Source of the DNA: a virus
Taxonomy: Duplodnaviria > Caudoviricetes
Direction: 5' to 3' (one strand)
IMG/VR virus record: IMGVR_UViG_3300018427_002120
Span: 5,873-69,872 of that record
Length of the DNA: 64,000 nucleotides
The notes below the pieces were generated by a model that searched no databases, was not told the DNA's origin, and saw nothing but the letters and a program-made list of their open reading frames with translations. The position numbers and the translations under genes were made by a program. Every line of letters begins with the position of its first letter. Position 1 is the stretch's first letter. Positions 41,452 through 44,602 of the stretch are shown piece by piece.

Positions 41452-41667
41452 ATGGGATATGGTTATTACAGAAATCACGAGGGTTATTATGACCCCACCG
41501 CTGGTACCGTCTTCGCCAAGCTGGAACGCGAAAACCGGAAAAAGAGAAGCGATCGCCGGAAGGCGCAGCGGAAGCGGAATGCACAGATTCGCAAGCTGAC
41601 TGCACATAGAAATCAGTACGCTACAGGAATTCGTCTTTCAGAAAGAGAGGTATCCAATGACGGCTAA
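41452..41667 (+). CDS. Small basic phage protein
   Basis: RNHEGYYDPTAG; GGAGG RBS. Confidence 0.7.
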   Translation: MGYGYYRNHEGYYDPTAGTVFAKLERENRKKRSDRRKAQRKRNAQIRKLTAHRNQYATGIRLSEREVSNDG

Positions 41668-42064
41668 AGAATACTTAGGACAGGCGTATCGGTTGGATCA
41701 GCGGATTAACAGCAAGCTGGAGCAGGTTCTTTCCCTGCGTGACCTTACCAAGAAGGCCACCGCTACCATGAGTGGTATGCCCGGTAGTTCCAGTCCCAAT
41801 GTTCATAAGATGCAGGACATCATCGTAAAAATTGTGGATCTGGAAAATGAGATCAATGCGGATATTGATCAGTTGGTAGATCTCAAGCGAGAGATGGTTG
41901 CGGTAATCAAGGCAGTAAAAAATCCGGAATTTCAAACGTTACTGGAATTGCGGTATTTATGCTTCAAGACTTGGGAACAGATTGCTGTGGATATGCAGTA
42001 TAGCACACGCAATATTTATAAGCTACATGATAGTGCCATCGCAGCAATTGTCATACCTCAATAA
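41657..42064 (+). CDS. Late transcription activator-like protein (DUF1492/ArpU-like)
   Basis: MTAKEYLGQAY, LLELRYLCFKTWEQIAVDM. Confidence 0.8.
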   Translation: MTAKEYLGQAYRLDQRINSKLEQVLSLRDLTKKATATMSGMPGSSSPNVHKMQDIIVKIVDLENEINADIDQLVDLKREMVAVIKAVKNPEFQTLLELRYLCFKTWEQIAVDMQYSTRNIYKLHDSAIAAIVIPQ

Positions 42065-42194
42065 CGCTAAACGGGCACGCCTTCTAGCAGGGAGTGCCCG
42101 TTGCTGCATATAAATGAAAAGAGGAGCCGAACTTCTCCGGCTCCCTAAGTATGCATCCGCAAATACATATCCCAATTTATATTACATTTTTTGC

Positions 42195-42256
42195 AAAAAA
42201 AGGAACCGGAGACAGGCACCGGTTCCAATAAAACCACGAAGTGATTTTTGTTCTAC
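42195..42256 (-). ncRNA. Predicted ~60-nt small RNA downstream of the Abi gene (candidate RNA antitoxin)
   Basis: Own promoter TTGACT-17-TATACT (42291-42263), hairpin AAAATCAC/GTGGTTTT, terminator GGAACCGG/CCGGTTCC + T7; no ORF. Confidence 0.6.
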
Positions 42257-42300
42257 GTTAATAGTATATGCGCGCGGACCCGAAAAGTCAACCCCCAATT

Positions 42301-43293
42301 TTAGGATAGTTTGTTCAGGATCTCCGCTACGAAGCGATAAGTGCTAATTAGACCTTGCTGCTTTGCGTAATACTCCTTGTTTTCCAGGATTCTCTCGTTG
42401 AACAGTGCTTTCGCCGTATCAAGACCCTTTTTACGGGAGGATTCCGGTACAATTTTGCAATATACAAGTAACAGTGCTAGAAAATCGTGCGTAGTTGGAT
42501 TTTGCAACTGCTGCGCCACTTTATCCGCCTTGTAGCTGGAAATTTTGTTGATTGCATTTCTAAGCTCATAGGAAGGATTGATGGATCGGGAATAAGGAGC
42601 CCGCATTTGGTTCAGCAAACAGTTGTTGTGAGCTGCTGCGTTGCGGATCATTTTAATTGCGTACAGATAACCACGGCAATCATCATCAAACTTGTTTTCT
42701 GAATAAAACAGATTATACAGATCAATGAAGGGACCGAAAGAGATGAGTTCCACGATGCTCCAGATGGCCCATGCATCCTTTCGCTTTGCAATGATCTGAT
42801 GGCAGGTAGAGGTATTAACCTTCTTTTCAATCTCGTCCTTCAAATCAGGTTGCATGGCAAAAAGTTTTCTGACAATAGCATACCCATCTTCATCGACCAT
42901 TGTGCAGTGGTTGAGCATCCGTACTTTTAAATAATGCTCCAAATCCAAGCACATATTCAGAATGATTTTTCTGAATTCCGCATCGATTTTTGAAAGATCC
43001 ACCAGATGGGCAAAATCCAAGTTAATATAGCGGTTGTCCTTTTCTGGGTCCTTATATCTGTCAAAGTTATGGGCATACGCCTTCAACTTGAAATAGTAGT
43101 TGTGCTCGGCAAGGAATGTACGCGCAGCAGTTTCTTTGTAAAGATCGAAAGCAATACCCTTCCGTTTCATGTGTTCAATTTGCTGCGGTATGGAGAGCTT
43201 CGGTGGAAGTGTAGCATGAGCATTACCTGCCGGGATTATTTCACCGATGAATCTTTTTTCCAGAAAAGACACCACCTTTCTTTGCTTAATCAT
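42301..43293 (-). CDS. Abi-family (Abi_2, AbiD/AbiF-like) HEPN protein
   Basis: YYFKLKAY, DFAHLVDLSKIDAEFR, ELISFG, IRNAAAHNN (RxxxxH); inverted relative to phage genes. Confidence 0.9.
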   Translation of the reverse strand: MIKQRKVVSFLEKRFIGEIIPAGNAHATLPPKLSIPQQIEHMKRKGIAFDLYKETAARTFLAEHNYYFKLKAYAHNFDRYKDPEKDNRYINLDFAHLVDLSKIDAEFRKIILNMCLDLEHYLKVRMLNHCTMVDEDGYAIVRKLFAMQPDLKDEIEKKVNTSTCHQIIAKRKDAWAIWSIVELISFGPFIDLYNLFYSENKFDDDCRGYLYAIKMIRNAAAHNNCLLNQMRAPYSRSINPSYELRNAINKISSYKADKVAQQLQNPTTHDFLALLLVYCKIVPESSRKKGLDTAKALFNERILENKEYYAKQQGLISTYRFVAEILNKLS

Positions 43294-43506
43294 TACATAT
43301 ATGGTAGTGCTAATGTCGAAAAAAGTCAATCATTTTATGTGGTTAGTTCTTTGCTAATATAGGTTTTATTTGCATAATCGGTGCAGTAAAATTCATTGTT
43401 TTTCAGTATAGTCCTATGGTATTATTATAATCGCCAAGAACATCAAGAGAGCCTCGTGGGAGAAATTCCACGGGGCTTTTCTTATGCCCTGACGGAGGTG
43501 TTGCAT

Positions 43507-43590
43507 ATGGGCTACCGAAAGGTTGGCTACATGGAGCAGCTCTGGTACATCTTCAAGCACATGATTAGGCGGCTGCTCCACAGGAGGTGA
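43507..43590 (+). CDS. 27-aa peptide preceding HNH
   Basis: GGAGG RBS; MGYRKVGYMEQLWYIFKHMIRRLLHRR. Confidence 0.5.
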   Translation: MGYRKVGYMEQLWYIFKHMIRRLLHRR

Positions 43591-43595
43591 ATTCA

Positions 43596-43943
43596 ATGCC
43601 CAAAAGGCCAAAACGACCCTGCTCCTATCCCGGCTGTCCCAAGCTGACAGATGGACAGTATTGTGAGGACCATGCTGCTGTTGCACGGCGGCAGTACAAC
43701 AAATACGAACGCGCCCCGGATATCAACAAGAAGTATGGTCGGGCATGGAAACGCATCCGGGATCGCCATGCCGCCCAACATCCTCTTTGTGAACGGTGCC
43801 TGGAAGAAGGGCGACTCGTTCCCATGGAAGAAGTCCACCACAAGGTGCCTGTTTCCAAGGGTGGCACCCACGCAAGGGACAATCTCATGTCTTTATGCCG
43901 TTCTTGTCACAACAAGATTCATCATGAAATTGGTGACCGCTGA
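43596..43943 (+). CDS. Terminase-associated HNH endonuclease
   Basis: CSYPGC, LCERC, VHHKVP..GG.H..DNLMSLCRSCHNKIH. Confidence 0.93.
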   Translation: MPKRPKRPCSYPGCPKLTDGQYCEDHAAVARRQYNKYERAPDINKKYGRAWKRIRDRHAAQHPLCERCLEEGRLVPMEEVHHKVPVSKGGTHARDNLMSLCRSCHNKIHHEIGDR

Positions 43944-44040
43944 CACCCAGGGGCGGGTCAGATCTCCGGAATGAAAAACCTGGGGCAGCGGCCCGGGGCT
44001 TCGTGTGAAAAATCGCAAAAGTTTTAAGGGGAATAGGCCC
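43944..44040. other. Probable cos region
   Basis: GC-rich non-coding gap between HNH and terS, the usual cos position in HK97-like phages; exact site not identifiable. Confidence 0.35.
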
Positions 44041-44062
44041 CTGACAAAGGAGGTATCGAACC

Positions 44063-44602
44063 ATGGGCCAAAGAGGACCCAAACCCGGCTCCGGTGGCAG
44101 ACCGAAAAAAGCCATCGCAGATAAAATTACGGACGGCAATCCCGGCAAGCGTCCGCTGACTGTCATTGATTTCAAAGACAGCGTGGCTGACCTGGAAGGT
44201 CAGGATATGCCCCAACCCAAGGAGTTCCTTTCTGCCAGACAGAAAGACGGCTCCACGCTCTGTGCTGCAGAGATTTATGAAAATGTGTGGAAATGGCTGC
44301 GTGACCGTGGGTGTGCCGCCATCGTCTCTCCGGACCTGATTGAACGGTATGCTCTGGCCAGTGCAAGATGGATTCAGTGTGAGTCCATTACCAGTGAAGT
44401 TGGTTTCCTAGCAAAGCATCCCACTACCGGGGCAGCGATCCAGTCTCCCTATGTTTCCATTGCCAATCAGTACATGACCCAGGCAAACCGACTGTGGTCT
44501 GAGATTTTCCAGATCGTCCGGGAGAACTGTACCGGCGATTACACTGGGGCCAGTCCCGAAGATGATGTCATGGAGCGGCTGCTCCGTGCAAGGAAAGGAT
44601 GA
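44063..44602 (+). CDS. terS: Terminase small subunit (P27 family)
   Basis: MGQRGPKP, GNPGKRPL, QSPYVSIA. Confidence 0.9.
   Translation: MGQRGPKPGSGGRPKKAIADKITDGNPGKRPLTVIDFKDSVADLEGQDMPQPKEFLSARQKDGSTLCAAEIYENVWKWLRDRGCAAIVSPDLIERYALASARWIQCESITSEVGFLAKHPTTGAAIQSPYVSIANQYMTQANRLWSEIFQIVRENCTGDYTGASPEDDVMERLLRARKG

Follow-up and report, generated by a model that had tools for sequence, protein, structure and literature searches.

The locus considered here lies within the window (that is, the whole stretch of 64,000 nucleotides that was analysed), which belongs to an IMG/VR provirus record; the closest relatives come from Oscillibacter and Oscillospiraceae MAGs. It comprises a gene for an Abi_2 protein, referred to below as abi, and a small RNA gene directly downstream of it on the same strand; the features of both are collected in Table 1. 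To the left of abi, on the plus strand, are genes for Sak4-like, helicase, primase and RusA proteins and for a phrog_36 transcription regulator (41657-42064), while to its right HNH endonuclease and small terminase genes (43587-44602, plus strand) open the packaging block. Between the regulator of the replication module and these packaging genes abi and its RNA are inverted, as had been claimed in a preliminary description of this DNA, which placed them between the early and the late regions. The position, running from a regulator to HNH/TerS, is a typical moron slot. In several of the homologous bacterial modules described below tRNA genes occur 1-2 kb upstream (L017:741-813, L053:1762-1835, L067:2127-2364 and L080:1-51), which is consistent with islands or prophages integrated at tRNA genes.

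Table 1 Features of the abi locus and its small RNA, numbered by position in the window.
Feature	Position	Strand	Basis or remark
abi gene, Abi_2 / AbiD-F-group HEPN protein, ~320-330 aa	42301..43275	(-)	Pfam, PADLOC, fold; start uncertain
HEPN RNase motif R-N-A-A-A-H (R229..H234)	42628..42645	(-)	alignment A1
Candidate abi promoter TTGACT-17-TACCAT, 9/12	43301..43329	(-)	consensus scan
Dedicated promoter of the small RNA, TTGACT-17-TATACT	42263..42291	(-)	begins 9 nt past the abi stop
Small RNA gene, 62 nt	42195..42256	(-)	covariance model R1, fold, alignments A2 and A3
5' segment GUAGAACAAAAA	42245..42256	(-)	single-stranded until the A-run that opens hairpin 1
Hairpin 1, AAAAUCAC-uuc-GUGGUUUU	42230..42248	(-)	8 bp including one G-U
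Hairpin 2, GGAACCGG-ugccugucu-CCGGUUCC	42226-42202	(-)	followed by seven U (42201-42195); intrinsic terminator
Second terminator-like GC hairpin, weak U-tract	42122..42145	(-)	~50 nt beyond the terminator of the RNA

As regards the protein, Pfam Abi_2 (PF07751) matches residues 73-240 at 6.4e-23, scoring 82.4 bits where the cut-off is 25.6; among PADLOC models AbiD fits best (4.9e-21), and PF07751 is present in every one of the 591 homologues found in a large protein collection. The HEPN motif, which had been reported as kept, is indeed intact, and in an alignment of 26 homologues having 40-89% identity (alignment A1) residues R229, N230, A231, A233 and H234 are all invariant.

The stop codon of abi (TAA, 42303-42301, minus strand) is clear, but for the start there are several candidates, namely an ATG at 43293, GTG codons at 43275 and 43272, and a CTG at 43263. 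The ATG, which was the original choice, is in-frame as proposed; however, it lacks a Shine-Dalgarno sequence and would stand where the mRNA is predicted to begin, whereas the CTG is the counterpart of the ATG in most homologues and lies 8 nt past a good Shine-Dalgarno sequence, GAAAGGTGG, a spacing that is ideal. The two GTG codons abut GAAAGGTGG. A start that is non-canonical or weak may keep translation of the toxin low. Since the folded part of the protein begins only near residue 44, the choice between these codons has no effect on the argument that follows. The stretch that holds the candidate abi promoter is kept in close relatives only, and appears as a 'LTFFDISTTIYV' pseudo-extension in P0003 and P0021.

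More can be said about the likely relationships of the protein from its predicted fold. When an AlphaFold2 model (pLDDT 75.8) was compared with the PDB using Foldseek, the sole significant match was to 8vz6_A, 'PbAbiF dimer bound to ncRNA' (E 4e-4); VIA-align aligned 259 residues of the two structures with an rmsd of 3.9 Å and a Z score of 13.7, the next-best fold match being Cas13d with a Z score of 8.2. Searches of PDB sequences, whether with the single sequence or with the A1 profile, did not find AbiF, so that it was reached by the fold search only, and identity to AbiFCd of the C. difficile phage phiC2 is just 20%. As modelled, Abi is a HEPN protein that has the AbiF fold and whose RNase motif is intact, and the combination of a fold match to PbAbiF with no sequence match in the PDB and low identity to AbiFCd marks it as a distant, AbiF-fold member of Abi_2.

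Toxins of the AbiF family are neutralised by a bound ncRNA, in cis as well as in trans (PMC12373285; PMC13064643). In the C. difficile prophage phi027/phiC2 the ncRNA RCd22, which contains the Rfam abiF motif RF03085, binds and neutralises the AbiFCd HEPN dimer (Saunier et al. 2025, PMC12373285), while in the system from a Prevotellaceae bacterium the ncRNA AbiFr binds and neutralises the PbAbiF HEPN dimer (PDB 8VZ6; Zilberzwige-Tal et al., Cell 2025, as described in PMC12737573, PMC12373285 and PMC13064643). The premise from which the preliminary description started, that such HEPN toxins are held in check by cis-encoded ncRNA and are linked to Cas13, holds (PMC12373285; PMC12737573, citing Zilberzwige-Tal 2025).

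Turning to the RNA, the promoter that had been noted beyond the abi stop is present exactly where it was placed, with its -35 box TTGACT at 42291-42286 and its -10 box TATACT at 42268-42263, separated by a 17-nt spacer. In a consensus scan it is the top sigma-70 match within 4.5 kb (10 of 12 positions), and the pattern TTGACT-17-TATACT is unique in the window and was found in none of 100 shuffles. The predicted transcript begins with the 5' segment, 7 bases past the -10 box, and folds exactly as had been described, into an 8-bp hairpin and then, after a 3-nt linker, a GC-rich terminator hairpin with its run of seven U (MFE -19.2 kcal/mol, z = -3.3 against shuffles). The apex of hairpin 2, GGUGCCUG, is conserved in sequence. 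A search of the window with a covariance model of the RNA family (R1, see below) returned a single match, at 42192-42259 on the minus strand, with a score of 54.7 bits. No tandem or direct repeats were found flanking the abi gene, the RNA being a single downstream unit, nor was any tRNA-like fold found for the RNA. A reading of this segment as a peptide gene was set aside, since it has neither an ATG nor a Shine-Dalgarno sequence and its stems covary. The second terminator-like hairpin listed in Table 1 is retained in the 90% relatives L002-L004, where it shows compensatory changes; it may mark where the convergent regulator gene ends, or act as a back-up terminator.

A lack of conservation downstream of homologous abi genes had been named in advance as grounds for rejecting the original interpretation, but what was found is the opposite, so that this interpretation is supported. 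Homologue loci were fetched from both viral (43) and genomic (80) sources, making 123 in all, with protein identities of 31-90%. Even a plain nhmmer search using the 111-nt element found matches in dozens of these loci, just 3' of the gene and on the same strand. The layout that they have in common consists of a sigma-70 promoter, 5-8 nt, the motif G(U/A)AG(A/C)ACAAAAA, hairpin 1, 2-4 nt, a GC hairpin and a U-run; across the family, hairpin 1 is a variable, covarying inner stem clamped by an A-run and a U-run, and the apex of hairpin 2 reads GGUGCCUGCA. In 98 of the 123 loci a covariance model (R1) built for this work finds one copy (E<0.01), which directly follows the gene on its 3' side and shares its strand; matches are practically absent from the rest of about 0.8 Mb of flanking sequence. 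Most of the loci beyond these 98 have, as judged by eye, a look-alike two-hairpin element downstream.

Whether the two hairpins are conserved as structures can be judged from the pattern of base changes. In a structure-blind MAFFT alignment of 70 distinct copies of the RNA (alignment A2) AAAA is invariant and G7 and A9 are nearly so; no other block of sequence in the family is as well conserved as the 5' segment corresponding to GUAGAACAAAAA. The RNAalifold consensus of this alignment is again two hairpins, with compensatory double changes in 14 of its 16 pairs. In a second alignment of 92 sequences, fitted to the R1 model (alignment A3, with which the structure-blind A2 agrees), 93.6% of cells are paired, as against 74.5% in column shuffles and 40-56% when the partners are slid; 317 cells are changed on both sides, as against 93 in shuffles, and none of 500 shuffles reaches the observed values. 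Taken by helix, 94.6% pairing is seen in helix 1, with three of five pairs changed on both sides, and 93.1% in helix 2, with compensatory changes in all 11 pairs. Conserved and structured, the small RNA is linked genetically to abi as its partner, and the promoter and covarying two-hairpin RNA recur after some 100 of its homologues.

The promoter is conserved along with the RNA. A promoter that agrees with the consensus at 9 or more of 12 positions precedes all but one of the 70 distinct copies, its -10 box stopping 5-8 nt (mostly 6) short of the motif, as compared with about 3 in shuffles. Where the motif begins only 1-19 nt past the abi stop, leaving no intergenic room, the promoter is embedded in the last abi codons; its retention there implies that selection keeps the promoter even while constraining the C-terminus of Abi. 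In L017, L021, L028, L053, L071, L077, L103 and others the -35 and -10 boxes lie within the last ~40 nt of the abi reading frame. In the 300 nt upstream of abi, by comparison, conservation was seen only among relatives of ~90% identity and no wider element was found, which singles out the downstream RNA as the conserved non-coding partner. Judged from its promoter and terminator, the RNA is a transcription unit of its own.

These observations bear on one alternative, namely that there is no separate RNA product at all, but only the terminator of abi accompanied by a chance promoter-like sequence. Hairpin 2 with its U-run is, it is true, a textbook intrinsic terminator, and because hairpin 2 doubles as a terminator, the need to terminate could by itself account for some of its conservation. 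Against this, a promoter is held in register in 69 of the 70 copies where about 3 would be expected, termination does not require the 5' GUAGAACAAAAA segment or hairpin 1 and yet these are what is most conserved, and there are free-standing copies (discussed below) that have both promoter and terminator but no abi gene. The alternative is accordingly regarded as very improbable. Some further indication of which part of the RNA matters comes from loci L084, L099, L101, L105 and L111 (labelled Faecalibacterium, Oxalobacter sp. and Oscillospiraceae), in which a UUCG-type apex, GGCUUCGGCC, replaces GGUGCCUGCA in hairpin 2 while the 5' GUAGCACAAAAG and hairpin 1 are retained; this suggests that the functional core, the part that does not vary, is the 5' half.

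The reading preferred here, to which a probability of roughly 0.6 is attached, is that by analogy with the AbiF systems abi and the RNA form a two-part toxin/RNA-antitoxin module of a type III-like kind that serves abortive infection or addiction and that a temperate phage of gut Clostridia carries as a moron. The abi gene would be transcribed from its own weak promoter, through the RNA gene, as far as the shared hairpin 2 terminator; given that no terminator intervenes between the abi stop and the RNA unit, abi transcripts should end there, and each abi mRNA would carry one copy of the RNA in its 3' end. The strong dedicated promoter, 9 nt past the stop, would fire at about 42256 and so supply an excess of free 62-nt RNA. 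If PbAbiF-AbiFr and AbiFCd-RCd22 are a guide, this RNA would bind the HEPN dimer and block the R229/H234 active site, contact being likely at the conserved 5' GUAGAACAAAAA, at hairpin 1 and, in hairpin 2, at the GGUGCCUG apex. Were a superinfecting phage to shut off host transcription or degrade RNA, or were the prophage to be lost, the labile RNA would be expected to fall, and the RNase so freed would then arrest the cell.

One might suppose instead that the RNA regulates expression of abi without binding the protein at all, whether by base pairing (as in type I systems), by promoter occlusion or other transcriptional interference, or by stabilising the 3' end of the message. The RNA sequence does lie within the abi 3' UTR, and RCd22 of C. 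difficile has, in addition, a cis effect on transcription (PMC12373285). When each RNA was compared with the 5' part of the abi mRNA from its own locus, however, no excess of complementarity was found (mean z -0.21 over 65 loci, with 2 of the 65 below -2); in addition, a same-strand promoter downstream of the gene cannot occlude initiation of abi transcription, and a strong promoter such as is found in 69 of 70 copies would be unneeded if the RNA were a mere 3' end. On this evidence expression regulation is considered improbable.

A different alternative keeps the binding but reverses its sense: the RNA could be a required cofactor, a sensor or a guide-like partner that activates or targets the HEPN protein much as crRNA does Cas13. 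Linkage, covariation and promoter data are equally compatible with such a role, the Abi family has fold kinship with Cas13d, and the conserved single-stranded 5' segment could serve as a recognition element. Nonetheless, a cofactor or guide fits poorly with the fact that in alignment A2 the single-stranded part is the most conserved and no variable, spacer-like segment is present, while in both of the AbiF systems that have been examined experimentally the RNA acts as an inhibitor (PMC12373285; PMC12737573). The copies of the RNA found in phages without a toxin are also more in keeping with a decoy or inhibitor than with an activator. It is therefore thought unlikely that the RNA activates Abi, if somewhat less so than that it acts on expression.

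The toxin-less copies just mentioned deserve closer attention. The genome of Absicoccus intestinalis (G004) has, besides one abi-linked copy, four lone copies (L130-L133), each with promoter and terminator, adjoining prophage repressor-like, HTH and lysin genes, and a six-frame Pfam search of this genome found one Abi_2 gene only. Copies running from promoter to terminator also adjoin the integrase in two essentially complete phage genomes (L134:10346-10426, CheckV completeness 96%; L136:9149-9229, 100% with terminal repeats), in neither of which was an Abi_2 gene found, and likewise in the provirus fragment L135 (5136-5198), which has no Abi_2 gene either. Two further searches yielded small numbers: an exact-pattern scan of viral contigs gave four loci (one of which, L137, was unconfirmed by the model), the pattern being too strict for this to serve as a measure of association, and an RNA-first search of 151 genomes from one order gave two carriers, which under the strict filters used is a sparse lower bound.

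It follows from the toxin-less copies that the RNA can exist without abi and might have a function of its own. They may be decoys, in the manner of phage-borne ToxI mimics, or remnants, or examples of an RNA with an independent role, and it is from them that the main reservation about a strict one-to-one pairing of Abi and the RNA arises. Blower and colleagues are reported to have described phage-borne antitoxin mimics for ToxIN (Blower et al. 2012, cited in PMC13064643). A more far-reaching proposal can be put forward only tentatively, and is thought rather less probable than its converse: that the 'GUAGAACAAAAA two-hairpin' RNA (~62 nt, with its own promoter, placed after the toxin gene and absent from Rfam) would be the cognate inhibitor of a distinct AbiF-fold HEPN clade in gut Clostridia, recruited independently of the abiF/AbiFr motif, and that the toxin-less copies of temperate phages would be decoys against the defence.

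To our knowledge, all bench work on AbiF-type toxins concerns one type of RNA, that of the upstream abiF motif, and AbiF-type HEPN toxins with bound ncRNA are the proposed ancestors of Cas13. If the present interpretation is true, a second, unrelated, strongly covarying RNA, tied to a sister clade in the opposite gene order and equipped with a dedicated promoter, would imply that the partnership between protein and RNA is evolutionarily plastic, and if the reading of independent recruitment is true as well, the family from which Cas13 arose would have swapped RNA partners more than once. At a more practical level, a new Abi-RNA pair becomes available for structural and biochemical comparison, directed at which features of the RNA block the HEPN site; an uncatalogued RNA family of ~100 members should aid annotation of gut Clostridia and their phages; and RNA-based anti-defence could be tested directly on the lone copies found in complete phage genomes.

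As for systems already described, classical type III toxin-antitoxin modules (ToxIN, CptIN, TenpIN, AbiQ) depend on a cis-encoded RNA in excess that holds an RNase toxin, and mediate abortive infection. The logic proposed here, an RNase toxin with a cis-encoded RNA, is similar, but unlike these modules the present one has no tandem antitoxin repeats, its toxin is a HEPN protein rather than one of the ToxN/AbiQ fold, and its RNA comes after the gene, not before it. Type I, with its antisense RNA, was considered and rejected, the RNA being on the same strand as abi and its RNAduplex pairing with the abi 5' region no better than that of shuffles. Among Rfam families none reaches threshold with the small RNA, the best being RF02451 (Bacillus sRNA ncr1241) at 27.8 bits against a gathering cut-off of 60. 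The two share a generic layout, a short hairpin and then a terminator, but in B. subtilis ncr1241 is flanked by yugI and alaT and has no connection with any Abi gene (PMC2965217), and with a sub-threshold score and so unrelated a locus this identity was rejected as a chance match.

The closest parallels are found among the Abi_2 proteins themselves. The lactococcal group comprising AbiD, AbiD1 and AbiD-like proteins as well as AbiF belongs to the same Pfam family as the protein described here; the lactococcal AbiD/D1/F genes have conserved upstream sequences and are thought to be two-component Abi systems of protein and RNA (PMC13064643). Their partner is thus reported upstream, whereas here it is downstream and the upstream region is not conserved. 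With the AbiF-ncRNA systems the present locus shares a single Abi_2 HEPN protein having the Rx4H motif and the AbiF fold, together with a small structured ncRNA that lies beside the gene on the same strand, has its own sigma-70 promoter and terminator, and is prophage-borne. There are, however, two points of difference. Firstly, known AbiF RNAs sit upstream of the toxin gene, in its 5' leader (PMC12373285; PMC12737573; PMC13064643), while here the RNA is downstream of the gene in all loci with an R1 match. Secondly, in place of the RF03085 hairpin (CCCGCCAAGCC...GCUCAAAUCGGCGGG) there are two hairpins, the 5' GUAGAACAAAAA and the GGUGCCUG apex. RF03085 gave no match at E<=10 in 41500-44000, only a 10-bit match elsewhere in the whole 70-kb record, and was absent from 30 homologue loci, with no match at the gathering score in a set of 20; as a positive control it scored 37.6 bits at the phiC2 locus, with the consensus CCCGCCAAGCC...GCUCAAAUCGGCGGG, and R1 in turn found no match at phiC2. 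The small RNA having no recognisable likeness to the abiF motif in sequence or structure, the analogy with AbiF rests on the protein, and since the family and the position of the RNA both differ from those of the AbiF system as described in print, the module is better viewed as a variant of that system than as a member of it.
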